Origin: Dehalococcoidia bacterium
GTDB lineage: Bacteria > Chloroflexota > Dehalococcoidia > UBA2979
Assembly: GCA_046328255.1 (NCBI GenBank)
Contig: JAXLWY010000026.1
Coordinates: 1 to 21,986 of the forward strand
Direction: 5' to 3'
Length of the DNA stretch: 21,986 nucleotides
Under the pieces are notes generated by a model. That model saw nothing but the letters and a program-made list of their open reading frames with translations. It did no database searches and had not been told where the DNA came from. Both the position numbers and the translations under genes were made by a program. Below are positions 575 to 20,429 of this stretch, piece by piece. Position 1 is the first letter of the stretch, and every line of letters begins with the position of its first letter.

Positions 575-1789
575 TCAGCGCATCGCGTCGCGGAGGTCCG
601 GGCGCGCCGCGCGACGAGGCCCGCGGCTGACCGAGGCCGCGCCGAAGCGCTCGCGCAGGCCGTCGATCGCGTGATCGAGCAGTTCCCGCTGCCGCACGGG
701 CGCGTCCTCGAATGCCAGTTGCACCACATCCTCGACCAGGTTCGTGGCCCCGAGGCCGATGAGGCGCACGGGGTGCGTCCCGATCTGCGCCGTCAACGCC
801 TCGAGCAGCGTGATCCCCTCGCGGTGCAGTTCCTGCGTCGACTGGAGCGGCAGGTCCACCGTCCGCGAGCGAACGAACGTGGTGAAGTCCGCCCAGCGCA
901 GCTTCAGCGTGACCGTGCGCGCGCGCTTGCCCGAGCCACGGAGGTCGCCGCCGATGCTGTCCGCATGCACGAGGAGGACGCGGCGCAGTTCGGCGGCGTC
1001 CTCGACGTCGCGCCCGAACGTCACTTCGCGCGACACCGACTTCGCCTCGCGCGGCCCACCGACCACCGGCGTGGGGTCGATGCCGCGCGCGCGGTCGTGG
1101 AGGTAGGCGCCCACCTTGCCGAAGCGGTCCTCGAGCCACCGCGGATCGGCGGCGGCCGCCTCACCGATCGACGTGATGCCCGCGGCTGCCAGGCGTTCGG
1201 CGAGCTTCGGACCAACGAGCGGGAGCTCGCGGATGGGGAACGGTGCGAGGAATGCGGCGTCCTCGCCCGGCGGCACCTCGATCAAGCCGTCCGGCTTCGC
1301 ACGGTCCGAGCCCGTCTTCGCCGTGATCCGCGAGCTCGCGATACAGACGGAGACCGCCAGACCGAGGTCGGACCGCACCCGTGCGCGCAGGCGGCGCGCG
1401 ACTTCGAATGCCCCACCCTGCGGACCGAGGCCGGTCAGGTCCGCATATGCCTCGTCGACGCCGACAGACTCGACGATTGGTGCAGCCTCGCGCAAACGCT
1501 CGTGGAACGCGCGCGACAGCGCGACGTAGCGATCGAAGTGTGGCGAAACCACGATCGCCTGCGGGCAGAGTCGGAGTGCGACCGCCATCGGCATCGCGGA
1601 ACGGCAGCCGAATGCGCGCGACTCGTACGAGGCGCTCGCGACTACGCCTCGAGGGCCGTTGAACCCGACGAGGACGGGCTTGCCGATCAGCGCCGCGTCG
1701 TCCAGTCGCTCGACCGCGACGAAGAAAGTGTCGAGGTCGAAGTGCGCGATACGCCTCGGCAGGCGCGGTCCGGGGTCGAGGCGAGGCAT
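575..1789 (-). CDS. dinB: DNA polymerase IV (Y-family translesion polymerase DinB)
   Basis: 404-aa ORF with Y-family hallmarks: IAHFDLDTFFVAVE, SYESRAFG, VDEAYADLTG, little-finger region. Full length and uninterrupted. Confidence 0.9.
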   Translation of the reverse strand: MPRLDPGPRLPRRIAHFDLDTFFVAVERLDDAALIGKPVLVGFNGPRGVVASASYESRAFGCRSAMPMAVALRLCPQAIVVSPHFDRYVALSRAFHERLREAAPIVESVGVDEAYADLTGLGPQGGAFEVARRLRARVRSDLGLAVSVCIASSRITAKTGSDRAKPDGLIEVPPGEDAAFLAPFPIRELPLVGPKLAERLAAAGITSIGEAAAADPRWLEDRFGKVGAYLHDRARGIDPTPVVGGPREAKSVSREVTFGRDVEDAAELRRVLLVHADSIGGDLRGSGKRARTVTLKLRWADFTTFVRSRTVDLPLQSTQELHREGITLLEALTAQIGTHPVRLIGLGATNLVEDVVQLAFEDAPVRQRELLDHAIDGLRERFGAASVSRGPRRAARPDLRDAMR

Positions 1790-2878: not shown

Positions 2879-3335
2879 CTAACCCTCGAGTGCGGGCAGG
2901 AGGGTGGCCATCTCGATCGCCGCGAGCATTGCCTCGCGGCCCTTGTTGCCCACGGCGCCGCCCGCGCGTGCCTGGGCCTGCTCGACAGTGTCCGAGGTAC
3001 GACGCCAAACGCGACTGGCATCCCGTAATCGGCGGCCACATCGGCGATGCCATGTACCGCCCGCCACGAAATCGAAGCGCGGTGCCCGCCTCGGATCACC
3101 GCGCCGACGCAGGCGATGGCGTCGTACCGACCGGTATCGGCGAGCGCGCGCTGCGAGCGGCAGCTCGTACGCACCCGGCACCCACGCCACATCGAGGTTG
3201 TGATCGGACACGCCGTGCTCGCCGCCGTAGTCGAGGGCGCCTGCAGCAGGCGCTCGGTGATCAACTCGTTGAACCGCGACGACGACGGCGACGTGCAGCC
3301 CGCTGGCGTCGAGCGAGCCTCGAAGGTGCGCACTA
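2879..3335 (-). pseudogene. ribH: 6,7-dimethyl-8-ribityllumazine synthase (ribH), reading frame broken by ~6 single-base frameshifts
   Basis: RibH segments in alternating frames: GSLDASGLHVAVVV | RFNELITERLLQ | GALDYGGEHGVSDHNLDVAWVPGAYELPLAARA | RYDAIACVGAVIRGG | RFDFVAGG | AVHGIADVAADYGMPVAFGVV | SDTVEQAQARAGGAVGNKGREAMLAAIEMATLLPALEG*. Example junction: gtacc where gtaacc is expected (homopolymer -1). Confidence 0.75.
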
Positions 3336-4624
3336 GCCCAGCCCCGGTCCCCGTGATCGGCCCATCTTCTCGCGCTTGGTCTGGAGGTAGCGGAGGTTGT
3401 GCGGGTTGGGCTCCACCTCGAGCGGCACACGCTCGACGATCTCGAGGCCGTAGCCATCGAGGCCGGCGCCGCGCAGCTCGCCGTGCGTCTGGATCTCGCG
3501 GACCTTGAGCGGGTTGTTGTCACGAGCCGCATCCGCGTGATGCCGAGGTCGACGAGGATCTGCGCGCCGATGCTGTAGTCGCGGTTCTCGGCAGGCAGGC
3601 CCAGCGCTGTTCGCCTCGACGGTGTCGAGGCCCTGCTCGTCCTGCAGGCGGTAGGCGCGATCTTGTTGTGCAGGCCGATGCCCCGGCCTTCCTGGTCCAT
3701 GTAGACGATCACGCCGCGTCCTCGTCGGCGATGCGCTGCATCGCGGCCTCGAGCTGCTCGCCGCAATCGCAGCGGAGTGAGCCGAACACATCGCCGGTGA
3801 GGCACTGATCGTGGACGCGCACCAGCGTGGGCTCACTGCTCGCGACGTCGCCGAGGACGAGGGGCCACGTGCTCCTTGGAGTCGATGAGCGCGGTAGCTG
3901 ACGGCGCGAGCGTTCCAAATCGCGTCGGTGCAGCGGCTCTTCGACGCGCTCGACGAGGCGCTCGTGCGCGAGGCGGTACGCGATGATGTCGGCGACAGTC
4001 ACGATCCCCATCTTGAACTTGCGGGCGAACCGCTGAGCTGTGGCATGCGCGCCATCGAGCTGTCCGTGACCATGATCTCGCAGGGACCACTGCCGCCGGC
4101 TGGAGTCCTGCGAGCTTGCAGAGGTCGACAGACGCCTCGGTCTGACCGGCGCGCACCAGCACGCCTCCCCGAGCGGGCGCGCAACGGGAAGATGTGGCCC
4201 GGCCGGGTGAGGTCGCGCGCGGAACTCGAGGGGTCCCTGAGCACCGGATGGTCCGCGCGCGATCGGCGGCCGAGATGCCGGTCGTCACGCCTCGCGCGCC
4301 TCGACGCTCACGGTGAAGGCTGTCCCGAGAGGCGCGCCGTTGTGCGCGGCCATGGGGTGCAGGTCGAGTCGGTCGCACCACGTCCCATCAGCACGCAGAT
4401 GAGGCCGCGCGCCTCGGTGGCCATCAGGTTGACCTCACCTCCGCGGTGCAGAACTGGGCGGGGATGCAGATGTCGTCATTCTCGCGGTCCTCGTCGTCGA
4501 CGATGATGAGCGGCTGCCCCGCCTTGAAGGCCGCGATGGCATCCTCGACGCTCATGAGGGCGGGGGCGCGAGTCTTCGTACCGGTGGGCTTGCGCTGGTT
4601 CTGGCTCGGTTGCTTCGTCGTCAT
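3336..4624 (-). pseudogene. ribBA: Bifunctional DHBP synthase / GTP cyclohydrolase II (ribBA), multiple frameshifts
   Basis: RibB motifs (SVEDAIAAFKAGQPLIIVDDEDREN; [15 protein letters not shown]; [13 protein letters not shown]; [27 protein letters not shown]; MARMPQL) and RibA motifs ([35 protein letters not shown]; [19 protein letters not shown]; RAYRLQDEQGLDTVEAN; LGLPAENRDYSIGAQILVDLGI; GLDGYGLEIVERVPLEVEPNPHNLRYLQTKREKMG) spread over five track ORFs in different frames. ATG at 4624 overlaps the ribE TGA (ATGA). Confidence 0.8.
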
Positions 4625-5231
4625 GAATCCCCGCCGGGCGGGCGGGTCACCGGGCCGCGCGCGCCCTCGAGCATCTGCTCCACGTATCGAGCGAGATGTC
4701 GGTTTCGAGGTTGATGCTATCACCGGGGTGACGGGGCGTGAGGTTCGTAGTTCCTTGCGTGTACTGGACCAGCGAGACGCCGGAAAGACTCCGCGTCCTT
4801 TGCCATCACAGTCAGCGATGCACCGTCGACGCAGACCGGGCCCTTCATCGCGATATAGCCCTGGCATCGGGAGCGACGGTAGCGCGCGATGAGCGCGTCG
4901 CCTTCTGGTGTGAGGCTGTCGAGGGTGCACGTGGACCTCGAACCACGCCTGCACGATGTGGCCTGACAGGCGGTCATCCGGGCGCAGGACCGCTCGAGGT
5001 TCACCGCGGAACCGGCCTGAGAGTTGACGAGGTTCGAGCGGCGGAACGTCTCGGGCATCACATCGAACGTCATCGAGCGCGCGTCCATGGCGCGAATCGT
5101 GAGGTCGACGCCGTTGACCGCGATCGAGTCCCCGAGCTTCGACCCTCGATGATCGCGTCGCAGTCGATCACGAGCACGCCGCCATCACGGACACTGACCG
5201 TGCCGACCTCTTCGATGATGCCCGTGAACAA
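4621..5231 (-). pseudogene. ribE: Riboflavin synthase alpha subunit (ribE/ribC), frameshifted
   Basis: LFTGIIEEVGTV (likely TTG start at 5231), MTFDVMPETFRRSNLVNSQAGSAVNLERS, IAMKGPVCVDGASLTV, GDSINLETDI and C-terminus RYVEQMLEGARGPVTRPPGGDS* found in at least three frames. Confidence 0.75.
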
Positions 5232-5248
5232 CGCTTCCGCCCTCGCAA

Positions 5249-6376
5249 CTACTTCCGGCCAGACCGGCACCCTCGATCGGCACATCGTCGCCGAGGCGCG
5301 TGACCTCGACGTCCGCAGCCGCAGCGCCTGCGCCATCCGTCGACGCCCTGCCTGGCAACGGCCGAGGGCGCTCGCCGCACCGATGAGATGATCGGCGCGA
5401 TCACGGCCTGCACCCGGTCCACCATGCGACGGCCTGTGGCGCGACCCAGGACGACGACGCTCACCGCCCTCGAAGAGGACGGTGAGGGCCCCGCGGGCCC
5501 CGAGGGCTGCCAGCAGCGCACGGAGGTCGACGTGGCTGTCGTCGGACGGGAGCACGAGCACCTCGGCGCCCGCGCCGACATCGATGGCGCTACGCCCTCG
5601 GGTGACGCCTCGGTGGTGGCGATGAGCGGGAAAGCGCCGGGTTGCAGTACGCGCAAGGGCGGCGGGCGTCCGCCCCCGCGCATCGAGGACGACGCGCAGC
5701 GGCTGGTGCACCGCGCCGGCCTCGCCCTCGGGACGCGCGGTCAGCTGCGGATCGTCGATCACGACCAGCCCCGACCCGACCACGATCGCGTCGAGGCGCG
5801 GACGGTTGCGGTGCGCCCACGCGAGCGTCTGCGGGCCCGAGACCCAGCGCGAGTCGCCCGAGGACGCCGCGATCCGCCCATCGAGCGAGGCGGCGAACTT
5901 GACGACACGGCGGGCAGGCCCGTTCGTCGGTGCCCGAGGTACCCCTCGAGGATGCGCGCGCCTCTCCGCCGCACCCCCTCGCCCACCTCGACGCCCACGC
6001 CGGCCGCCTCGACCAGCGCGGCCGCGGCCGTTCACCTCGGGGTTGGGTCGTCGAGGGAGTAGTGGGATCGCCGCGACGCCCGCCTCGATGAGGGCGTCCG
6101 TGCAGGGGGCGTGCGCCCCCGGTGGGCGTGCGGCTCGAGGGTCACGTACGCGGTCGCTCCGCGCGCGCGGGTTCCCGCCTCGCGCAGCGCCATCACCTCG
6201 GCGTGCGGGCCGCCGGGCGGCTGCGTGTGGCCCGCGCCGACGACCGCGCCATCGAGGACGATCACGGCGCCCACGGCGGGGTTGGGGGATGACCAGCCGA
6301 GGGCGCGCTCCGCCTCCGCCAGCGCAAGGCGCATGAACTCGCCGGGCGGGCGCGCGGAGCCGGGCAAGCCGGCCAT
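5249..6376 (-). pseudogene. ribD: Riboflavin biosynthesis deaminase/reductase (ribD), frameshifted from ~6100 downward
   Basis: Intact N-terminal deaminase domain: [91 protein letters not shown]. Then shifts: PCTDALIEAGV / HYSLDDPTP / AALVEAAGVGVEVGEGV / VVKFAASLDGRIAASSGDSRWVSGPQTLAWAHRNRPRLDAIVVGSGLVVIDDPQLTAR / PLRVVLD / LVDRVQAVIAPII. First shift is ccccc where cccccc is needed. ATG at 6376 overlaps the dcd stop (ATGA). Confidence 0.75.
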
Positions 6377-6958
6377 CAGTCTGCGGGTCGGCGGTAGTCG
6401 ACCCACCCGCGACTGGCCGTGGGGCCCTGCTGCCCCTGGTACTTCGAGTGCAGCCCCGGCGACCCGTAGGGCCGCTCCGCCGCCGAGGACAGCTCGTGAA
6501 TCGAGAGCTGGCCGATCTTCATGCCGTAGTAGAGCTTGATCGGCAGGTTCGCGACGTTCGAGAGCTCCATCGTGAGGTGCCCGTCCCATCCCGGGTCGAC
6601 GTATCCCGCCGTCGCGTGCACGAGCAGGCCCAGCCGGCCAAGGGACGACTTCCCCTCGACGCGCGCAACGAGATCGTCGGGGATGACGACGCGTTCCAGC
6701 GTCGACCCGAGCACGAACTCGCCCGGGTGCAGCACGAACGCCTCGTCGTCGGCGACCACCTCGAGCTCCGTGAGGTCATCGACGGGCGCGCGCACGTCGA
6801 TGAACGACTCGCGGTGATTGCGGAACACGCGGAACTCGCGGTCGAGGCGGATGTCGATCGAGGCGGGCTGGAGCGCATCGTCGCGCATGGGATCCACGAC
6901 CAGGCGCCCCGATTCGAGGTACGCGCGGATGTCTCGATCGCTGAGGACCACGAGGCAC
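6376..6958 (-). CDS. dcd: dCTP deaminase
   Basis: [21 protein letters not shown]...ASIDIRLD...[76 protein letters not shown]...[21 protein letters not shown]. Intact. Probable GTG start near 6958; the track M at 7038 is likely an upstream over-extension. Confidence 0.85.
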
Positions 6959-6969
6959 CTCGAATGCGC

Positions 6970-6988
6970 GGCGCGAGAACGTCGCGCC
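6970..6988 (-). terminator. GC hairpin (ggcgcga-N5-tcgcgcc) between SIMPL stop and dcd start; possible terminator/attenuator
   Basis: Perfect 7-bp stem with a 5-nt loop, ~55 nt downstream of the SIMPL-gene stop on the minus strand. No U-tract, which is common in high-GC actinobacteria. Confidence 0.25.
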
Positions 6989-7044
6989 GTCGACACGAAT
7001 CGTACCGTCCGCGAGCCGAGGGCGGCAGCGCCCGCCACGTGAGC

Positions 7045-7810: not shown

Positions 7811-8632
7811 TCAGAGCGAGCCTCGACGCCGCAGCCAGAGCGCTGCAGCGAGCAGCGTGAGCGTGGATGCCGCGACGGCCAGCACAATCTGCACGCTCAG
7901 CCACACGGGCCCCTGGTCGAGCCGCTGGAGCGGCAACGGCGGCAATGGTGTGGCCGAGGCAGTGGGTTCGCGAATGGCGGCCTTCGAGGGCGTCTCAGGC
8001 GAGGGCGCCGCTGCCCCTCCGGACGGCGCGCCACTCGACGGTCGAGCCGGCGGAGCCTGAGGAGCTGCCGCGGGCGCACCTGCGGGCGCGGCCGCCGGCG
8101 CGATGGCCGGGGCAGACTCGTTGGCGCCGGTCGCAGGCGCAGCGGCCCGGGCGCCCGAGGACTGCTCGGCCTGCTTGCGCGTATCGGCGACGGCGGTTGC
8201 GGCATCGCGCGGCGCACCTGTCGATTGCGCCCCGGACAGGGCCGAGTCCGCCTGCGGCTTCGAGGCCAGCGTGGAGACGAACGTCGTGGTCGGCAGCACG
8301 CTGACCACCGTCAGCACGAGTGCGGCAGCCACGGCTCCGACGCGCGCGAACAACTCGATGCGCGGGAGCGCCGGTGAGGGCCTCACCGTGCCGGGCTGCA
8401 GGGCGAACGAGCGCGGGGCGTGCTCGAAACCGAGTGAGCCAAGGCTCGCACGGACCGCGCGCATCCCCTCGAGGGCGACGCGCACCTCGACGTCGCGTTC
8501 TGCCTCAGCTTCCAGCTGGGTGCGCTGCGGCGGCACGAGCGCACCATCGAGGTATGCCGACAGCCGCTCGTCCCGCTCGCTCGCGGGCGTGCTCGGCATC
8601 TCATCCTCGTCGCGCTGCCAGGGCCAACGCAT
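7811..8632 (-). CDS. Transmembrane anti-sigma factor (RseA/RskA-like N-terminus without Cys, Pro/Ala-rich extracytoplasmic part)
   Basis: N-terminus ERDERLSAYLDGALVPPQRTQLEAEAERDVEVRVALEGMRAVRASL matches the anti-sigma N-domain pattern. TM helix FARVGAVAAALVLTVVSVLPTT, long PA-rich region, second C-terminal hydrophobic segment. Directly downstream of the ECF sigma gene. Start codon is uncertain (8632 or 8599). Confidence 0.65.
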   Translation of the reverse strand: MRWPWQRDEDEMPSTPASERDERLSAYLDGALVPPQRTQLEAEAERDVEVRVALEGMRAVRASLGSLGFEHAPRSFALQPGTVRPSPALPRIELFARVGAVAAALVLTVVSVLPTTTFVSTLASKPQADSALSGAQSTGAPRDAATAVADTRKQAEQSSGARAAAPATGANESAPAIAPAAAPAGAPAAAPQAPPARPSSGAPSGGAAAPSPETPSKAAIREPTASATPLPPLPLQRLDQGPVWLSVQIVLAVAASTLTLLAAALWLRRRGSL

Positions 8633-8651
8633 GCGCTCTCCCGTTCGCGTT

Positions 8652-9257
8652 CTAGGAAGTAAGACGCCCAGCGGGGGACGTAAGTTCCCCGGTGGCGAGC
8701 AGGATGTCGCGCAGCCGTCCACGCGCCCGGCTGATTCGCGACTTCACTGTGCCGAGGGGCAGTCCCGCGGCGATCGACACCTCCTCGTAGGACAGGCCGT
8801 GCACGTCGGTCAGCACGACGACGAGACGCCACTCCTCGGGGAGCTGGAGGAGCGCGCGCTCGAGGGCGGCGCGCAGCTCAGCGTTGAGGGCGGCCGCCTC
8901 GGGGCTGGGTCCGGGATCCGCAGGGTCGGGCGCGCTCGCCTCACCCTCGAGCGCCGGCGCATCGAGGGAGCGCGTGGGACGCCGCCGCTGTCGTCGCAGC
9001 TCGTCCCGACAGGCGTTGGCGGTGATGCTGAGGAGCCACGCGCGGAAGTGCTCCCCTCGGAAGCTCCGAATGGCGCGAAACGCCCGCACGAAGGCCTCCT
9101 GCGTGGCGTCCTCGGCGGCGGCACGCTGTCCCATGAAGCGGTAGGCGAGGCTGTACACCTGGTCCTGGTGCGCAAGAACCAGGCGGTTGAACGACTCCAC
9201 GTCGCCCGCCTGGGCGCTTCGAACAAGCTGCTCTAAGTCCACGCGGGCGGGCTCCAC
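8652..9257 (-). CDS. ECF (sigma-70 family, group 4) RNA polymerase sigma factor
   Basis: 201-aa with region 2 (FNRLVLAHQDQVYSLAYRFMGQRAAAEDATQEAFVRAFRAIRSFRGEHFRAWLLSITANACRDELRR) and region 4 (LPEEWRLVVVLTDVHGLSYEEVSIAAGLPLGTVKSRISRARGRLRD). GTG start. Intact. Confidence 0.85.
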   Translation of the reverse strand: MEPARVDLEQLVRSAQAGDVESFNRLVLAHQDQVYSLAYRFMGQRAAAEDATQEAFVRAFRAIRSFRGEHFRAWLLSITANACRDELRRQRRRPTRSLDAPALEGEASAPDPADPGPSPEAAALNAELRAALERALLQLPEEWRLVVVLTDVHGLSYEEVSIAAGLPLGTVKSRISRARGRLRDILLATGELTSPAGRLTS

Positions 9258-9380
9258 CTGGTACGCCGCGGGCGCGCCTCCGTGCTGCGCTGTCAGCCGC
9301 CCCGAGGCCGAGGGTGGCGCATCGAGCGGGATCCGCGGGGCACGGAGCTCCTCGATGCTCCCCGAGGTGTGGAGGCGCGA

Positions 9381-10212
9381 ATGGGACTGGCGACCGGCCG
9401 AGCCTGCTTCACGCGGCCGAGCGCGGCGGCTATGCGGTGCCCGGATTCAACGTCTCGAACCTCGAGCTGGCGCTCGGCGTGCTCGATGCCGCGCGTCTTT
9501 GCGCGCGCCGGTGCTGCTGCAGTTCAACACGAGCAACATCACGCACTTCGGCGGCATCGAAGTGGTTGCGGCCACGGCCCGCACGCTCGCAGCCTTGCCG
9601 AGACGCCGGTCGCGGTCCACCTCGATCACGGGACCTCGCTGCCGCAGGTTCGAGCGGCGATTCGCAGCGGGTTCACGTCGTTAATGTTCGATGCGATCGA
9701 CGTTCTCGCTGGAGCGCAACACGCGCGAGACGCCCGCGCGGGCGCGGCGGTCTCCTCGAGGCGGGGCTCGCCCTCGAGGCCGAGCTCGGCCACGTCGGCG
9801 GGCGCGAGCCGGGCGTGGCGACCTCGGAAGCGGTGTCACCGAGCCCGAGGACGCCCGCCGGTTCGTCGAGGCAACGCGCGTCGACGCGCTGGCGGTCTCG
9901 GTGGGAACGGCGCACGGCATGGCGGGCGACGTGAACCTCGATCTCGTCGCCGCGCTCCGAGAGGCCACACGCGGCCTGCCGCTGGTCCTGCACGGCGGAT
10001 CCGGCGTGCGATCGAGTCAACTCCGCGAGGCCGTGCGCGCCGGCATTCGCAAGGTCAACATCTCGACGGAGATCCACGCCGCGTTCGCTGCTTCGCTCGC
10101 ACAGGGCGTGGATGCCGACCCTCGACCGGCGTTGAATCGAGCGCGTGCCGCTGTTGCCGATGCTGCGTCGTCACGCATCGAGTTGCTGGGCGCCACGCGT
10201 CGAGCCTGGTGA
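9381..10212 (+). pseudogene. fba: Class II aldolase (fructose-/tagatose-bisphosphate aldolase, FbaA/GatY family), ≥5 frameshifts
   Basis: Pieces in three frames: MGLATG | SLLHAAERGGYAVPGFNVSNLELALGVLDAAR | APVLLQFNTSNITHFGGIEVVAATARTLAA | TPVAVHLDHGTSLPQVRAAIRSGFTSLMFDAIDVLAGA | LEAELGHVGGRE | EDARRFVEATRVDALAVSVGTAHGMAGDVNLDLVAALREATRGLPLVLHGGSGVRSSQLREAVRAGIRKVNISTEIHAAFAASLAQ...SRIELLGA*. First shift within ~7 codons of the ATG. Confidence 0.7.
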
Positions 10213-10290
10213 TACATAATCAGTTCACTTATCCGCGCGCTTCTTCGGGAAGCCGCGCGTGCGAACTGATCTCGGGGCTATACTCGGGCA

Positions 10291-11065
10291 ATGCGCGAGC
10301 CGATCAGCCAGGATCTCCCTCGGGTGCAGACGCCCGTCCTTGTCCAGACGCCGGTGGTCCTGACCGCCACGCATCAGGGCCTGATCGACTTCGACCCGTG
10401 GGAGGCCGAGTGGCAGCAGCGGCCGTGGGCTGCGGCGCCCGCGAGGCGCACCCCGCTTTCGATGATCCCTTACCAGTGGCTGGCGGAGGTGTTGAGGTCG
10501 GGCGCTCGCGCTTCTTCATGTTCATCGCCGTCCAGCAGGCCTCCAGAACTTCATCGTCGATGGCGGCTCGATGGAGCCGAACTTTCATTAATGGCGAGTT
10601 TGCTCATCGTCAACAAGGTCGCGTTCCGCACGCTGAGCGTCCTGTTGCTCCCGTTCGTCGACAAGACGTGGAGGCCATTCGGGCTGCCAAAGCCAGGCGA
10701 CGTGGTGGTCTTCGAGTTCCCCCAGGACCCCTCGCGCGACTTCATCAAGCGCGTGATCGCGGTGCCCGGCCAGCAGGTCGAGGTGCGAGAGGGCCGTGTG
10801 TACATCGACGGCCAGGTCACCGACGAGCCCTACCTCGCCGAGCCGCCGCATTACCAGTACGGCCCGATCGGTGCCGGAGGGCAACCTGTTCGTCCTCGGT
10901 GACAACCGGAACAACTCATACGACTCGCATTCATGGGGCATGCTCCCCGAGCACTTCCTCATCGGACGCGCCGAGTTCCGCTACTGGCCGCTGTCGGCCG
11001 CGGGTCGGATCACCAGCCCCGCCGAGGCCTCCTCGACTTCCGGAGGCAGTGCCACATCGCAGTAG
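10291..11065 (+). pseudogene. lepB: Signal peptidase I (LepB), several frameshifts in the N-terminal/catalytic region
   Basis: Box B FIVDGGSMEPNFH (frame 2, runs into TAA), then LLIVNKVAFRTLSV...GLPKPGDVVVFEFPQDPSRDFIKRVIAVPGQQVEVREGRVYIDGQVTDEPYLAEPP (frame 1), then VPEGNLFVLGDNRNNSYDSHSWGMLPEHFLIGRAEFRYWPL* (another frame). TATACT hexamer 6 nt upstream of the ATG suggests a leaderless transcript. The N-terminal ~70 codons are not confidently resolved. Confidence 0.65.
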
Positions 11066-11076
11066 ATCCCGTCGTC

Positions 11077-11616
11077 GTGCGTGCGTTCGAGGATGCCGGC
11101 GCGTTCCTGCGCGGGCACTTCCAGCTCGCGTCCGGACGCCACTCCGATGCGTACCTCGAGAAGTTCAACCTCCTGCAGTGGCCGCCACAGACCGACGTGG
11201 TATGCGCGCGACTCGCCGAGGGCGGACGTGAGTTCGCGCCTCAGATCGTCGTCGGGCCGACCACCGGCGGGGTGATCATCGCCTACGAGGTCGCCCGCCA
11301 CCTCGGACTGCGGGGAGTCATCGCCGAGCGCGACGAGGGCGGCCGCTCGATCGGCCGGCACTTCCGCCTCGAGCCGGGCGAGCGTGCGCTCGTCGTCGAC
11401 GACGTGCTCACCACAGGCGGCTCGGTGCGAGAAACGCTCGAGGCGGTGCGGAGGGCGGGCGGGGTCCCGGTCGCCGTGGCGGTCATGGTCGACCGCTCGG
11501 GCGGCAAGGTCGACTTTGGCGTGCCGCTGTTTGCGGCGACCGAGGTGGAGATGCAGACCTGGGAGCCCTCGGACTGCCCCCTCTGCCGTGACGGCGTTCC
11601 CCTCGAGGTGACCTAG
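11077..11616 (+). CDS. pyrE: Orotate phosphoribosyltransferase
   Basis: GTG start 12 nt after the lepB stop. (M)RAFEDAGAFLRGHFQLASGRHSDAYLEKFNLLQWP...IVVGPTTGGVIIAYEVARHLGLRGVIAERDEGGRSIGR...ALVVDDVLTTGGSVRETLEAVRRAGGVPVAVAVMVDRSGG (PRTase type I fold, PRPP-binding motif). Intact. The track ORF 10933..11616 over-extends upstream into lepB. Confidence 0.8.
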   Translation: MRAFEDAGAFLRGHFQLASGRHSDAYLEKFNLLQWPPQTDVVCARLAEGGREFAPQIVVGPTTGGVIIAYEVARHLGLRGVIAERDEGGRSIGRHFRLEPGERALVVDDVLTTGGSVRETLEAVRRAGGVPVAVAVMVDRSGGKVDFGVPLFAATEVEMQTWEPSDCPLCRDGVPLEVT

Positions 11617-11741
11617 CTCGGCATCGCACGAGCCTCACCCGACACGCACCCGCAAGGCCTTCCTCACCTAGACAGTCCTCGACGCAAGCCCGATCGTGAT
11701 CCGCGCAACCGTGATGGTGTCCGGAGGCCCGGAGGCGCACG

Positions 11742-13823
11742 ATGCCGTTCGACCTGCCTCAGATCGCGTGGTTGACGACGGCGCTGACCATCGGCATCCC
11801 TGTCCTCCTGCTCATCGTCCTCATCGGGCGGCCGCTCGTGAACATCGGCGGCGAGGAGGTGGGTCTCGTCGAGCGGCGCTACTTCGGAGCCGGACTTCCG
11901 GAGGGCCGCGTCATCGCGATGCCGGGCCAGGTCGGCATCCAGGCGCGCGTGCTGCGCCCGGGCCTGCACGTCCTCTTCCCGTACCTCTATCGAGTGCAGA
12001 AGCGCCCGATGATCGTCATCGGCGAGAACGAGGTGGGCATCGTCGAGTCGATCGACGGGAACCCGCTCGCACCGGGACACATCTTCGCGCGGCGCATCGG
12101 CAGCCACGACCTCTTCCAGGACGGCGAGGCCTTCCTGCGCGCCGGTGGCCAGAAGGGTCCCCAGGTCGACGTACTCCCGCCGGGCCAGTATCGAATCAAC
12201 ACCTACCTGTTTCGCATTCGCGTCGAACCGGCCCTCATCGTGCCGGCGAACCAGGTGGGTGTGGTCAGCGCTCGAGACGGTGAGCAGATCGAGGCGGGGC
12301 GCCTGCTCGCGTCGCAGACCGCCGGGCACAACTCGTTCCAGGACGGCGAGGCGTTCCTCGCAAACGAGGGCCAGCGCGGCCCCCAGATCGACGTGATCCT
12401 GCCCGGCCGCTATCGCCTCAACACCGACCTGTTCAGCGTGCAGGTCGCGCCCGCCACAGTCGTCGGGGCCGCGATGGTCGGGCAGGTCACCGCGAAGGAC
12501 GGCGAACCACTCCCCTCGGGTGAGCTCGTGGCCGCGAGCGTCACGGGACACACCGACTTCCAGAATGGCTCGGCGTTCCTCGCGGCCGGCGGTCAGCGGG
12601 GCCCGCAACTCGACCTCCTGCGGCCGGGTACGTACTACATCAACCCCTTGATGTTCGACGTCACCCTCGACGACGTCGCGGTCGTGCAGCGCGGCCAGGT
12701 GGCGGTCCTCGTATCGAACGTCGGGCCCGAGCCGGACCGGCCTCAGGCAGAGCGCCTCGCCGAGGGCCTCGAGCGCTACGTGGTGCCGCAGGGCTTCCGC
12801 GGAATCCAGTCGGAGGTCGCAGGGCCGGGTGTGTACTACCTCAACCGCTGGGCCTACCTCGCCTACGTAATTCCGACGACGAACCTCACGATCGACTGGG
12901 CCGAGGAAACCACCATCATCACCGAGCAGTCGGGGCCGCGCACCCAGACCGACGAGGAGCCCGAGCCTCGCCGCCTGCAGCTCTTCAACCCGCTCTCCGT
13001 GATCAGCCGTGACGGCTTCGAGATGAAGGTCTCGGTGAAGGTGATCATGCGCGTGCATCCCGAGCAGGCGCCGCTGATGGTGGCGAAGATCGGCTCCGTC
13101 CAGAACCTGATCGACCACGTCATCCACCCGATGATCGACTCGTCCTTCCGCAACCAGGCGTCGTCCACCGAGGCGATGTCATTCATGCAGGACCGCGCCG
13201 TCGAGCAGGAGAAGGCCGAGGTGCGCGCGCGCGAGGAGATGGAGAAGTACCACGTCGAGTGCGTGCGGGTGCTGATCTCGCAGATCATCCTGCCCGAGGA
13301 GTTGATGCACATCCACACGCGGCGCGTGATCGCGATGCAGCAGCAGGAGATGTTCATCGAGCAGCAGAAGTCGGAGCAGCAGCGCATCGCCACCGAGAAC
13401 ACGCGCGCACAGGCCGACCAGCAGATCAACCTCGTCTCGGCGCAGATTGGCGTGCAGATCGCCGAGCAGAACCGCCAGACCACGGTCATCGGCGCCGAGG
13501 GCCGCGCGCGCGCCATCGAGCTGGAGGGCAACGCTGAGGGCTCGAAGATCCTCGCGATCGGCAACGCCACCGCCGAGGCCTACGACCGCCAGCAGAACGC
13601 GATCGGCCAGGCGAACCTGTTCGGCATCGAGATCGCGAAGTCGATCGCGGGGGCCGGGCTGAAGATCACCCCGGACATCGTCGTCGGTGGGGACGGCGGC
13701 GGCGGGATGTTCGCGGCGTTCCTCGCGCAGATGCTCGCGGGCGGACGGGTGCCGGCGCTGGTGGGCGGCGGCAACGGTGGCAGTCCCGCGGCGGCACCGG
13801 ACTCCGAGATGCCCTCGAACTAG
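11742..13823 (+). CDS. Flotillin-like SPFH/band-7 family membrane protein with expanded N-terminal repeats
   Basis: 693-aa uninterrupted ORF. N-terminal TM (IAWLTTALTIGIPVLLLIVLIG), then 3-4 tandem ~60-aa repeats (FQDGEAFLRAGGQKGPQVDVLPPGQYRINTYLF / FQDGEAFLANEGQRGPQIDVILPGRYRLNTDLF / FQNGSAFLAAGGQRGPQLDLLRPGTYYINPLMF). Then SPFH core and a flotillin-type heptad region (EQQKSEQQRIATENTRAQADQQINLVSAQIGVQIAEQNRQ...AIELEGNAEGSKILAIGNATAEAY) and a Gly-rich tail. Confidence 0.85.
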   Translation: MPFDLPQIAWLTTALTIGIPVLLLIVLIGRPLVNIGGEEVGLVERRYFGAGLPEGRVIAMPGQVGIQARVLRPGLHVLFPYLYRVQKRPMIVIGENEVGIVESIDGNPLAPGHIFARRIGSHDLFQDGEAFLRAGGQKGPQVDVLPPGQYRINTYLFRIRVEPALIVPANQVGVVSARDGEQIEAGRLLASQTAGHNSFQDGEAFLANEGQRGPQIDVILPGRYRLNTDLFSVQVAPATVVGAAMVGQVTAKDGEPLPSGELVAASVTGHTDFQNGSAFLAAGGQRGPQLDLLRPGTYYINPLMFDVTLDDVAVVQRGQVAVLVSNVGPEPDRPQAERLAEGLERYVVPQGFRGIQSEVAGPGVYYLNRWAYLAYVIPTTNLTIDWAEETTIITEQSGPRTQTDEEPEPRRLQLFNPLSVISRDGFEMKVSVKVIMRVHPEQAPLMVAKIGSVQNLIDHVIHPMIDSSFRNQASSTEAMSFMQDRAVEQEKAEVRAREEMEKYHVECVRVLISQIILPEELMHIHTRRVIAMQQQEMFIEQQKSEQQRIATENTRAQADQQINLVSAQIGVQIAEQNRQTTVIGAEGRARAIELEGNAEGSKILAIGNATAEAYDRQQNAIGQANLFGIEIAKSIAGAGLKITPDIVVGGDGGGGMFAAFLAQMLAGGRVPALVGGGNGGSPAAAPDSEMPSN

Positions 13824-16798: not shown

Positions 16799-18099
16799 CC
16801 GCCTGTCGCCGCGAGCACTGACTCGACCGCGCTCGCGACCGCGAGCAGCGCCTCGTCGGCGCCATGCCGCCCGGCGAGCTGCAGCCCGACGGGCAACCCC
16901 CCGATATCGCCGGCCGGCACGCTGACGACGGGCAACCCCGCGTGCGTCCACGGTGTGTTCATCACCGGGCTGCCGGTCGAGGCTTGCCCGAGCGGAGCGG
17001 CGCCCGGCGCCGACGGACTGGCCCAGGCGTCGAGCCGGTGGAGCTCCATGAGTCCCTCGAGCGCGTTGCGCAGGGCAAGCGTTCCGGCGACGCCCGCGGA
17101 GCGCTGCTCCGAGGTCACCGCGCTGCCTTCCTCGAAGAGCTGGGCTGAGCGAGGTCGGTAGAGCGGGCCGTACTCGGCGAACAGCGCGCGGTGCTGATCG
17201 GCGAACTCGGCGGCGGTCAGCCAGCCGTGGCGCGTGCTGATCGCCGCGATGTCCTCGAGGGCCGGCACGCGCCGCACCTCGATGCCCGCAGCCACCAGTG
17301 TGTCGAGAGTGCGCTCGAAGGCGCCCAACGCTGCCGACTCGGCGCGTGCGAGGTAGGGGCCTTCCGGTACGCCAAGCACGACACGGGGCGCCGACGAGGC
17401 TTCGCGCCAGTCCTCGATGAGCACGCGCGCGGCCTCGATCAGACCGGCGACATCGCGGGTGAACCAGCCTACGGTGTCGACGCTCGGCGAGTAGTACACG
17501 ACGCCGCTCGAGGGCACGCGTCCCAGCGACGGCTTCAGCGCGGCGACGCCGCAGTAGGCGGCGGGCCGGATCACGGAACCCACCGTCTGCGTGCCGAGGG
17601 CGAGCGGAGCCAGCCCCGCGGCAACCGCGGCCGCCGACCCGCTGCTCGACCCGCCCGGGGTATGGCCGGGTGCTCTCGGGTTCCGCGTCGCCGCGGGCTC
17701 GAAGTAGGCGAACTCGGTGGTGGCGGACTTGCCGAGGATGAGCGCGCCGGCCTCGCGGAGGCGCGTCACGACCCACGCCTCGGCGCCCGCGAAGACTTCG
17801 GTGGGCAACGCCGAGCCCGCGCGCGTCGGGAAGCCGTCGACGCGAATCACGTCCTTCACCGCGACGGGCACGCCGAACAGGGGCGGACGCACCGACGGAG
17901 TGAATCGAGCCTCGAGGGCGCGCGCCTCCGCGCGCAGACGCTCACGGCGGCCCAGCTCCGGGAGCACGGCGAGCACGTGTGGGTTGAGCTCCTCGAGACG
18001 GTCACGAAGGCAGCCTCGGTAAGTGCCGTTACGTCGAGTTCGCCGCCTCGAGCCGCTGCGAGGCCGCGAGTTCAAGCCCAGTGCCTCGAGTTGGCTCAT
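16795..18099 (-). CDS. Amidase-signature (AS) family amidase; N-terminus carries two compensating frameshifts (~18030-18075)
   Basis: GGSSSGSAAAVAAG signature, VAVKDVIRVDGFPTRAGS, ILGKSATTEFAYF. ATG at 18099 gives MSQLEALGL, but the expected consensus (…TELAAARGGELDVTALTEAA…) is only found in another frame before returning to LRDRLEELNPHV. Body of the gene is intact. Confidence 0.8.
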   Translation of the reverse strand: MSQLEALGLNSRPRSGSRRRTRRNGTYRGCLRDRLEELNPHVLAVLPELGRRERLRAEARALEARFTPSVRPPLFGVPVAVKDVIRVDGFPTRAGSALPTEVFAGAEAWVVTRLREAGALILGKSATTEFAYFEPAATRNPRAPGHTPGGSSSGSAAAVAAGLAPLALGTQTVGSVIRPAAYCGVAALKPSLGRVPSSGVVYYSPSVDTVGWFTRDVAGLIEAARVLIEDWREASSAPRVVLGVPEGPYLARAESAALGAFERTLDTLVAAGIEVRRVPALEDIAAISTRHGWLTAAEFADQHRALFAEYGPLYRPRSAQLFEEGSAVTSEQRSAGVAGTLALRNALEGLMELHRLDAWASPSAPGAAPLGQASTGSPVMNTPWTHAGLPVVSVPAGDIGGLPVGLQLAGRHGADEALLAVASAVESVLAATGG

Positions 18100-18169
18100 C
18101 GCCCTCCGACTTCGCCCCGTGAAGCTGCAGGAAATCCAGCCCGGCGCCCGACCATCGGAGTGTCTCTGG

Positions 18170-18448
18170 ATGGCGAAAGAGGCCCCGCGCATGTTCAGCA
18201 GTTGTGATGCGTGCAAGCGCCCAGATCCTTCCGACCTCACCCAGATGCAAGGTCGAGCGCGGCAACTGGTGGCCACCAAGCTCGGACTCTCGCTGCGGCC
18301 GCGTTCTCGAGACCTGTTCGTCCTCTGCCACGACTGTGGCGAGCTCGCGATTGCGCGCGTCCGCCCGGTCGTCGCCGAGGGTGAACGGCCAGCGCCGCGC
18401 GGGCTGATCGTCGACCACTTCGCCTCGATTTCCCGTCCGTGCGTGTGA
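18170..18448 (+). CDS. Small zinc-ribbon protein (CxxC...CxxC), hypothetical
   Basis: MAKEAPRMFSSCDACKRPD...(34 aa)...CHDCGELAIARVRPVV.... Divergent from the amidase with a ~70-bp intergenic spacer. GC3 is lower than in confident genes, and it lies in a frameshift-rich block, so its length and existence are uncertain. Confidence 0.3.
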   Translation: MAKEAPRMFSSCDACKRPDPSDLTQMQGRARQLVATKLGLSLRPRSRDLFVLCHDCGELAIARVRPVVAEGERPAPRGLIVDHFASISRPCV

Positions 18449-18478
18449 CACTGGCGAGGCGTCCCCTACGCTGGGATC

Positions 18479-19336
18479 GTGCGCTCGCTTCTTCGATCCG
18501 CTCCCCTCGCCGCTCGCAGCACCCTGCTTGCGGGCTGCGTCGTCCTTGCATGGATCGCGTCGGGCTGCAACGTCGCCGTCGGTGAAACCAGCCGCGGACC
18601 CGAGCCGCTGCGCTCAGTCGGCGACGCCCTCGACGCGGATACGAAGATCGACCGTGGACTGCGGCGGCGGGCACCAGCAGCAGCATTGGGGAGATCGTCC
18701 AGACCTCGGGTGACGCCGCGGCACCGGCCGTGAGCGTGACGATCTCGGCGGGCGGCACGGGAATCAGTCTGCCGAAACGACTGCCAGGTTGGCGTGCGCG
18801 CCGGCACGGACCGACGGCACCACCGTCGATGTGGTCGAGTACGGCGCCGGACGCTGTGCGAGCTGGTCGAGGCCTGCTGGAAGCGCCATCATGGGTGCGC
18901 GGCAAGTACCTCGAGCCCTGCCGCCGCCCGACAGGCGCACGACTCGGTGTCTCCTCGACCTCGCCGGGGGACCCAGCCGTCCGCGCAGCTCCGAAAGTGG
19001 AGCAGCGAGCTGCTCGATGGCACCGGCCGGATCGCTCCTGAAGGCCGGCACGCGCCGAGCTCTCCAGGAGCCGTGATTACCACCTCGGCGCTGGAACGCA
19101 TCGGAAGGCAATACGCCAGCTCGCCGCCGACATCACGGCCGCCGAGGCGGCGACCGCGCCCGCCTGCGCCATCCTCGGAAATACCATCGAGGCGGCAACC
19201 GCCGCGGCCGATCTCGCGAAGCAGGCCGCGACGGCGTTCTCGAGCGGCGCCAGTACTTCCGCGCTGGACCCGCTGGTGAGCAGGCCTGCAGCGCAGCAGG
19301 AATCAGCCCGGCTGATCACGCTCTGCGCGAAGCGCT
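18479..19336 (+). other. Fragmented coding region of unknown function (lipoprotein-like N-terminus; Ala-rich helical C-terminal piece), probably one or two frameshift-broken genes
   Basis: GTG-initiated VRSLLRSAPLAARSTLLAGCVVLAWIASGCNVAVGETS... (signal peptide plus lipobox) stops after 84 codons. Other frames continue with ...AVSVTISAGGTGISLPK..., ...GTTVDVVEYGAG... and, in frame 1 without its own start codon, IRQLAADITAAEAATAPACAILGNTIEAATAAADLAKQAATAFSSGASTSALDPLVSRPAAQQESARLITLCAKR* (ends ~19336). Confidence 0.25.
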
Positions 19337-19483
19337 GATCCCGGACAGGCTCGCACACCCCACAACGCCGCGGGGCGCGCTGGTACGCCTCGTAATGGCC
19401 GTCACCGTCGCGCGGCTGTAGCGAGGAGTGCAGCGTGCAGATCAGTCCCAGCGTCCGCGCGATCCGGGTTCCGACGACAAGCC

Positions 19484-20429
19484 GTGCACCCCGGCGGCAC
19501 CAACATCTACCTCGTCGGCAAGGGCCAGGCGCTCACCATCGACTCCGGCGAGGCGATGGATCACTACAAGTGGATGCTTCGCGGAGTACCTCGCGGCGGT
19601 GGGCGCTCCGGAGATCGCGCACTCGCGGCGATTACCCACCACCACGCCGATCACAGCGGCAATCTGCGCTGGGCGAACTGGCATCTTCCAAGGCCGAGGT
19701 GGTGGTCCACAGGCGCGCAGTGCCGCTGCTCAAGGGGAAGCTGCCGAAGAAAAGGCGGTTCGCTTCATCGGGCGGCGGTGCTCGACATGGGCAGCGGCGT
19801 GAAGCCCGCGCGTGATCTTCGCGCCCGGCCACAGCGGTCGACTCGATCAGCTACTACCTCGAAGACGAGGGCGTGCTCACCTTCACCGGCGACGCCTGCT
19901 CGGATCAAGCACCACCACCGTCAATGACCTCGGGAGCTACCGCGCCTCGCTCCAGCAGCTGGTGAAGCTGCCCAACCTCAAGGTGATCTGCCCCGGCCAC
20001 GGCGCGATCGTCAACGATCCGCGCGAACGACTGCAGGGGCTGATCGCGCACCGCGAGATGCGGGAGCGCCAGATCCTCGAGGTCCTCGACGACCGACGCC
20101 CTCGGACGTCGTGGGAGATCATGGAGGCCGTCTACCCCGGCCTCGACAAGCGCCTCAAGCGCGCGGCCACGGGGAACGTCGAGACCCACCTCCGCCAGCT
20201 CGAGCAGGAGAAGCGCCTGCTCCTCCATCCCGGCCGCGCGAAGAAGCCGAACGCGAACGTGGTGCAGCGCGAGGTGGAGCACGCCAAGTACGTCGACGGG
20301 GTGCTCAAGGAGGCGAAGAAGCTGGAGGAGCAGCGCCGACGCGCGGAACTGCGCATGCAGGAGAGCCCACCAGGCGCGGCATGGTCACGACAGCCGAAGT
20401 ACGAGCTCGTAGGGCGGGCGAAGGACTAG
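19484..20429 (+). pseudogene. MBL-fold metallo-hydrolase; N-terminal half broken by ~8 frameshifts, C-terminal 175 codons intact
   Basis: GGTNIYLVGKGQALTIDSGEAMDHYKWM | AEYLAAVGAPEIA | ALAAITHHHADHSGNL | KAEVVVHRRAVPLLKGK | AAVLDMGSGVKPAR | VIFAPGHSG | DSISYYLEDEGVLTFTGDA | then from ~19905 in one frame: GSYRASLQQLVKLPNLKVICPGHGAIVNDPRERLQGLIAHREMRERQILEVLDD...GRAKD*. Confidence 0.65.

Follow-up and report, generated by a model that had tools for sequence, protein, structure and literature searches.

The aldolase (fba) and signal peptidase I (lepB) genes that lie between an ECF sigma factor gene and pyrE on this Dehalococcoidia contig are each broken many times by small indels, and the block that holds these defects (positions 9316–10871) is best regarded as a low-accuracy assembly patch rather than as the biological state of the genes; judging from the sequence comparisons described here, we put the probability of this reading at about 0.93. 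The defects stop at the limits of the block, occur only in the window (our name for the whole 21,986-nt stretch of DNA that was analyzed), fall on coding and non-coding DNA alike, and are not seen in a separately assembled copy of the locus from the same species. In the organism itself, fba and lepB are almost certainly ordinary intact genes in their place between the sigma factor gene and pyrE.

The original prediction had favored a localized sequence-quality problem over the loss of both genes, and the comparisons support it: the locus is intact in a contig from another sequencing run (L082), a LepB sequence deposited separately is identical to the LepB of that contig, and the indels are specific to the window. 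The outline that it gave to the block has to be redrawn. The first defect lies at 9316 and not at 9390, which takes in the spacer between the sigma factor gene and fba, together with the upstream ATG at which the sigma gene call of L082 starts. Likewise, the block does not contain “indels only”, as had been stated, but 35 substitutions as well, 13 of them non-synonymous. Furthermore, it is not one uniform stretch but a series of dense islands (9316–9836, 10234–10286, 10458–10643, and the site at 10870) with clean stretches between them.

The locus and its two disrupted genes

The window has a G+C content of about 70% and is most closely related to uncultured Chloroflexota that bear the label Chloroflexi or Dehalococcoidia. 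The gene order sigma factor, fba, lepB, pyrE, SPFH protein is common to the window, to L082, and to the contig CADEHD010000024.1 (L001), and a further contig (L081, 84% nucleotide identity) covers the lepB, pyrE, and SPFH part of the locus. A scan of metagenomes with a clean 30-mer returned only distant relatives (L083–L085, 71–75% nucleotide identity), which contribute no more than L001 does. In the order and orientation of its genes the window resembles an ordinary locus of Chloroflexota of the Dehalococcoidia type, as seen in L082, L081, and L001; it differs from all of these in that only the window copy carries indels.

That fba and lepB are dense in frameshifts is confirmed by three-frame translation, in which pieces of both proteins can be recognized across all the forward frames, and by alignment to the L001 orthologues with a purpose-written protein-to-DNA aligner that tolerates frameshifts and takes the intact L001 proteins as guides. 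With the L001 Fba (276 aa) as guide, the window gene undergoes seven net changes of frame, and eight indels (9403–9836) interrupt a reading frame that is continuous in both L082 and L001; at least five shifts had been proposed. The frame is first lost at codon 8 (about position 9403, the ATG being at 9381), in keeping with the earlier estimate of about seven codons, and the 3′ part of the gene (9837–10212) stays in one frame. Over the matched codons the encoded protein is 82% identical to that of L001, and the conceptually repaired Fba matches PF01116 with 271 bits, well over the cut-off of 25.5, along profile positions 4–275 of 277; the L082 protein reaches 275 bits. The L082 aldolase also passes the ketose-bisphosphate aldolase model TIGR00167 (223.3 bits vs. 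a cut-off of 215.6) and falls below the cut-offs of the FBA equivalog models NF009497 (238.6 vs. 423) and TIGR01859 (236.7 vs. 343). On these scores the gene can be assigned at the subfamily level only, a level that establishes neither a substrate nor the label of an essential fba. Because the equivalog cut-offs were failed, the description of both genes as normally essential goes beyond the evidence for the aldolase, which passed TIGR00167 alone; the assignment of lepB, the other gene so described, is clear.

The signal peptidase gene is disrupted in a similar manner. With the L001 LepB (258 aa) as guide there are six net changes of frame; L082 and five more relatives have an unbroken reading frame of 258 aa, which nine indels (10492–10870) interrupt in the window. 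The catalytic-box motif GSMEPNFH does run into a TAA, as had been noticed: the window has gained a T at 10588 and has T in place of C at 10589, which gives CAT TAA where L082 has CAC AAT and the relatives have CAC AAC or CAC AAT. Both GSMEPN and DFIKRVIA are legible in the frame segments of the window gene, with the Ser box (GSMEP) and the Lys box (KRV), which we take to supply the catalytic dyad, both present. The repaired LepB is 79–96% identical to its relatives (79% to L001 over matched codons), and the L082 LepB reaches 143.2 bits against TIGR02227, where the cut-off is 47, and 156 bits against PF10502. The expectation that both genes shift again before their C-termini holds, with the last shifts at 9836 in fba and at 10870 in lepB, and the final 195 nt of lepB are clean.

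In the alignment to L001, the only in-frame stop codons within fba and lepB are those that the shifts themselves create. The frameshift signal is not an artefact of the method, because the same aligner found no frameshifts in about 1,700 codons of control genes (pyrE, the SPFH gene, a Na/Ca exchanger gene, a DUF6782-like gene, and the dcd core). The pyrE gene is intact and lies 207 nt past the last defect, where about 200 nt had been given; its assignment is clear, and its three differences from the L082 gene are synonymous, so that the two proteins are identical.

Two features of the local reading frames are worth describing. A mechanically called open reading frame of 649 aa (9282–11231, plus strand) spans the entire block without a change of frame; this is an artefact of high G+C content, stitched together from segments of true and false frame, that a gene caller could mistake for a gene. 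At the left edge, the gene call on L082 starts the ECF sigma factor at an upstream ATG (222 aa; L082 positions 783–785, at about 9320 in the window). The 2-nt insertion of the window (9316–9323) falls just inside this longer frame, and only the GTG at 9257 gives an open frame there (201 aa). The function of the sigma factor is not in question, because its domains begin at residue 26 of the short form.

Comparison with an intact copy of the locus

L082 is a contig of 4560 bp from the Logan assembly of run SRR26348421, a different run from that of the window, and we assume that it derives from accurate short reads. A literature search on this run turned up no publication. An exact search with pyrE matched L082 alone, and one with the 693-aa SPFH protein had no match. 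It was located through a protein search with the repaired LepB, which led to a cluster member (P0127) that is 96% identical and encoded on this contig. L082 aligns to positions 8536–13094 of the window at 98.4% identity (99.8–100% in the flanks) and carries intact sigma factor, fba (277 aa), lepB (258 aa), and pyrE genes and the start of the SPFH gene, in the order of the window and with Pfam matches that span the genes end to end. An independent sequence with continuous reading frames had been named beforehand as a check on the disruption, and L082 is such a sequence. Given the 0.3% difference in the right flank and the separate run, it may represent a different strain. In addition, a partial LepB from a separate NCBI metagenome-assembled genome (MFN8640083.1, P0121) is identical to the L082 LepB over its 231 residues. 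With an intact allelic locus present in the population, the suggested search for intact paralogues is no longer needed.

Table 1. Features of the locus and of the block, with differences counted against L082. Indel positions are followed by the number of nucleotides gained (+) or lost (-) in the window.
Feature	Positions	Strand	Length	Indels	Substitutions	Difference	Remarks
ECF sigma factor gene	8652..9257	-					Left clean flank; PF04542/PF08281; 8536-9315 identical to L082
Spacer, sigma to fba	9258..9380	.		4	5		9316 +2, 9324 -1, 9327 +1, 9344 -1
Class II ketose/fructose-bisphosphate aldolase gene (fba)	9381..10212	+		8			PF01116; 9403 -1, 9500 -1, 9593 -1, 9694 +1, 9737 -1, 9751 +1, 9754 +1, 9836 -1
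Spacer, fba to lepB	10213..10290	.		3	3		10241 +1, 10250 +2, 10286 -1
Signal peptidase I gene (lepB)	10291..11065	+		9			PF10502/TIGR02227; 10492 -1, 10501 -1, 10512 +1, 10534 -1, 10539 -1, 10542 +1, 10588 +1, 10603 +1, 10870 -2
Premature stop in lepB	10586..10591	+					CAT TAA directly after GSMEPNFH; three-frame translation and L082 alignment
Orotate phosphoribosyltransferase gene (pyrE)	11077..11616	+					Right clean flank; TIGR01367
SPFH/Band 7 protein gene	11742-13823	+	693 aa				Right of pyrE
Left flank	8536-9315		780 bp	0	0	0%
Island	9316-9836		521 bp	12	17	5.6%
Inter-island stretch	9837-10233		397 bp	0	3	0.8%
Island	10234-10286		53 bp	3	3	11%
Inter-island stretch	10287-10457		171 bp	0	0	0%
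Island	10458-10643		186 bp	8	12	10.8%
Inter-island stretch	10644-10869		226 bp	0	0	0%
Single site	10870		2 bp	1	0		2-nt deletion
Right flank	10872-13094		2223 bp	0	7	0.31%	6 substitutions synonymous

Measured against L082, the defects are sharply concentrated (Table 1). Every one of the 24 indel events lies within 9316–10871, as do 35 of the 42 mismatches, so that the block differs by 3.8% and the flanks are 99.7–100% identical; there are 59 differences in the 1555 bp of the block vs. 7 in the 3004 bp outside it (Fisher p = 6e-21), and the indels taken alone give p = 5e-12 for block vs. flanks. The indels comprise 13 deletions and 11 insertions, each of 1–2 nt. The two intergenic spacers carry 7 of the 24 events, at a density at least equal to that in the genes, and the dense islands alternate with clean or nearly clean stretches, the change from one to the other taking only a few bases even in the middle of a gene.

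The outgroups place these changes on the window side of the comparison. In a four-way alignment, both L001 (76% nucleotide identity) and L081 (84%) support the L082 state wherever the window and L082 differ by an indel; at mismatch columns they side with L082 in 39 and 29 cases, respectively, and share the window state in 10 and 2. Hence, the window alone carries these changes, and it did not acquire them from any relative that was sampled. A 41-mer that spans two of the errors had no match in metagenome_contigs. A divergent allele brought in by recombination was rejected as an explanation on the same comparison, the window variants not being common to L081 or L001, and a collapse of repeats or paralogues was rejected in that the window contains no second copy of the block. 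The changes specific to the window LepB (EVLRS for EALEVV, Q-GL for RGVA, L for V, and L for P) all fall on columns that are invariant in six relatives, down to 79% identity. These changes at conserved residues, together with a non-synonymous to synonymous ratio of 13:14 inside the block and 1:6 in the flanks, count in favor of the low-accuracy reading.

It is also worth considering whether the genes are genuine pseudogenes, that is, whether this strain lost fba and lepB, and with them the riboflavin genes elsewhere on the contig, by mutation and survives on paralogues or on its community. Pseudogene clusters are found in the reductive genomes of Mycobacterium leprae and of recently host-restricted symbionts, and the multiply disrupted reading frames of the window resemble these in that housekeeping genes with several frameshifts are still recognizable. 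The ratio of non-synonymous to synonymous changes, 13:14 in the block vs. 1:6 in the flanks, also lies in the direction that such a loss would produce. However, true pseudogenes diverge at a roughly neutral rate that they share with neighboring synonymous sites and gather far fewer indels than substitutions, and one would not find DNA 100% identical to an intact relative at their borders, as one does here. The flanks, whose differences amount to 0–0.3% and are almost all synonymous, show that the window and L082 parted very recently. By our own rough estimate from the synonymous divergence of the flanks, 1555 bp of neutral sequence should hold about 12 substitutions, about a third of the 35 found (Poisson p = 5e-8), and one or two indels, where there are 24 (indel-to-substitution ratio 0.69). 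The steep step from nearly identical flanks to the block argues against true gene decay, as do the equal damage to the intergenic spacers, the sharp end of the defects inside genes (the 5′ part of ribD and the end of lepB are spared), and the intact allelic locus in two independent assemblies. Three blocks on a single 22 kb contig would, moreover, each need a mutation burst of their own. We consider loss of the genes in this strain very unlikely, although it fares slightly better than the other biological readings.

Character of the changes and their origin

The substitutions in the block are rich in transitions (25 of 35) and asymmetric between the strands, with C-to-T changes from L082 to the window numbering 13 and G-to-A changes only 2 (p = 0.007). 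This asymmetry probably reflects a consensus built from one or a few reads of a single orientation. A T was added in 5 of the 11 insertion events, and the local G+C content is lowered, to 0.64 in 10501–11000. Among the 23 indels of a single base type, 3 lie in homopolymer runs of at least 3 nt, against a background of 10%, and error driven by homopolymers was rejected on this count. The indel spectrum looks like that of raw or low-depth single-molecule reads and not like residual consensus error, and it provides no argument for a biological origin.

A real but localized burst of mutation, or “mutation shower”, arising from error-prone repair synthesis (for example by DinB/Pol IV) in one molecule or a minor lineage would likewise give clustered, strand-asymmetric changes, many of them transitions or 1-nt indels, that are found in the window alone, and a dinB homologue lies within the window (575–1789). 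Yet the density of changes in the islands, 5–11%, is to our knowledge orders of magnitude above that of known repair-associated mutation clusters; housekeeping genes would have been inactivated in at least two or three blocks of one contig; and the perfect stretches between the dense islands are more readily explained by patchy correction than by a repair tract. Furthermore, a single damaged molecule that came to represent the assembly would itself be a consensus artefact. Such a shower is, in our judgment, still less probable than strain-specific gene loss. The same low standing belongs to its fuller version, in which several kilobase-scale bursts of error-prone synthesis, marked by strand-biased C-to-T changes and 1-nt indels, knocked out fba, lepB, and the rib operon of an environmental Chloroflexota cell that lives on paralogues or on metabolites of its community. 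Hypermutation and strain-specific pseudogenes together account for a few percent of our expectation. Programmed recoding, in which ribosomal frameshifting or transcriptional slippage would yield full-length proteins and which draws on the conserved residues kept in each frame segment, is effectively refuted by the intact orthologous locus and has a negligible chance of being correct: the two genes contain 17 shifts of both signs instead of a single conserved slippery site, only 3 of 23 indels in the block lie in runs of 3 nt or more, every relative has a continuous reading frame, the same species included, and identical defects occur in non-coding spacers.

The low-accuracy patch that we favor has a plausible route of formation, for which we infer the sequencing technology and polishing history of the contig. 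Most likely, the contig began as a noisy single-molecule long-read draft, a long-read gap fill, or a hybrid assembly, and polishing by consensus or with short reads would have fixed most positions while correcting the sequence only in part. Polishing may have failed where coverage or short-read alignment failed, or where heterogeneity of the population prevented it, and islands would then be left near the error level of raw reads (5–11%) beside perfectly corrected DNA. The same process would have produced the block in the riboflavin operon and probably also one near 18–19.9 kb. Three bursts in 22 kb, each blind to genes and each bounded by perfect sequence, point to the patchy correction of a noisy draft and not to a biological process.

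Indel frameshifts, local ones included, have been described in long-read metagenome-assembled genomes with insufficient coverage or polishing (proovframe preprint, 10.1101/2021.08.23.457338; Sereika et al. 2022, PMC9262707). The window resembles long-read (Nanopore or PacBio CLR) or hybrid assembly error in several ways: dense 1–2 nt indels and substitutions split conserved genes, the frame segments still encode the conserved protein, the defects are patchy and ignore gene boundaries, and they are absent from short-read-type assemblies of the same organism. It is unlike the residual errors of polished nanopore sequence, which are described as derived from homopolymers, in that its indels are not enriched in such runs; the classic homopolymer signature of polished nanopore, 454, and Ion Torrent consensus is absent here, and the local error level is closer to that of raw or very low-depth reads than to that of a polished consensus.

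Other blocks on the contig and consequences for annotation

The consequence of the block is practical and not biological. Annotators who took the contig at face value would wrongly call the aldolase, signal peptidase I, and the riboflavin operon pseudogenes or missing, and such calls would distort the metabolic reconstruction and the completeness estimate of this Chloroflexota metagenome-assembled genome. The contig needs re-polishing or frameshift correction, and positions ~3000–6109, 9316–10871, and probably ~18026–19900 should be masked in evolutionary analyses. Were the defects true, which is very unlikely, it would be remarkable for core functions such as these to be lost together.

The riboflavin operon (ribH, ribBA, ribE, and ribD, on the minus strand at ~3000–6109) contains a larger block, and the likeness that had been drawn between it and the fba–lepB block stands, with the same pattern of many frameshifts in ribBA, ribE, and ribD. 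Against the L001 proteins there are 13 frameshifts in ribBA (3787–4684), 9 in ribE, and 11 in ribD, at least 33 in total, and ribH is split over two open reading frames. Those in ribD all lie within 5268–6109; the block ends inside this gene, at about 6109, and leaves clean both its 5′ part (up to 6376) and the neighboring dcd (6379–7022). A DNA-level comparison with L001 again shows dirty and clean stretches in alternation. When the repaired ribD was used as a query, the best match was only 79% identical, and the boundaries of the rib block rest on L001, at 76% nucleotide identity.

A third error block is probably present at ~18026–19900. The motifs THHHADHSG, PGHS, TGDA, and CPGHG of a single MBL-fold hydrolase gene are found there in three frames (~19450–19960), and the alignment of an amidase breaks at two −1 shifts (18064 and 18026). 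No coherent open reading frame was seen over 18465–19400, and a Pfam search with fragments of the suspected block matched only a winged-helix domain. Between the blocks the sequence is clean, including dinB (575–1789), dcd, the sigma factor gene, pyrE, the SPFH gene, the Na/Ca exchanger gene, and the amidase core. The first of these, on the minus strand, is an intact gene for a Y-family polymerase of the DinB/Pol IV type with IMS, IMS_C, and IMS_HHH domains, and it is of relevance here only to the unlikely hypermutation reading.
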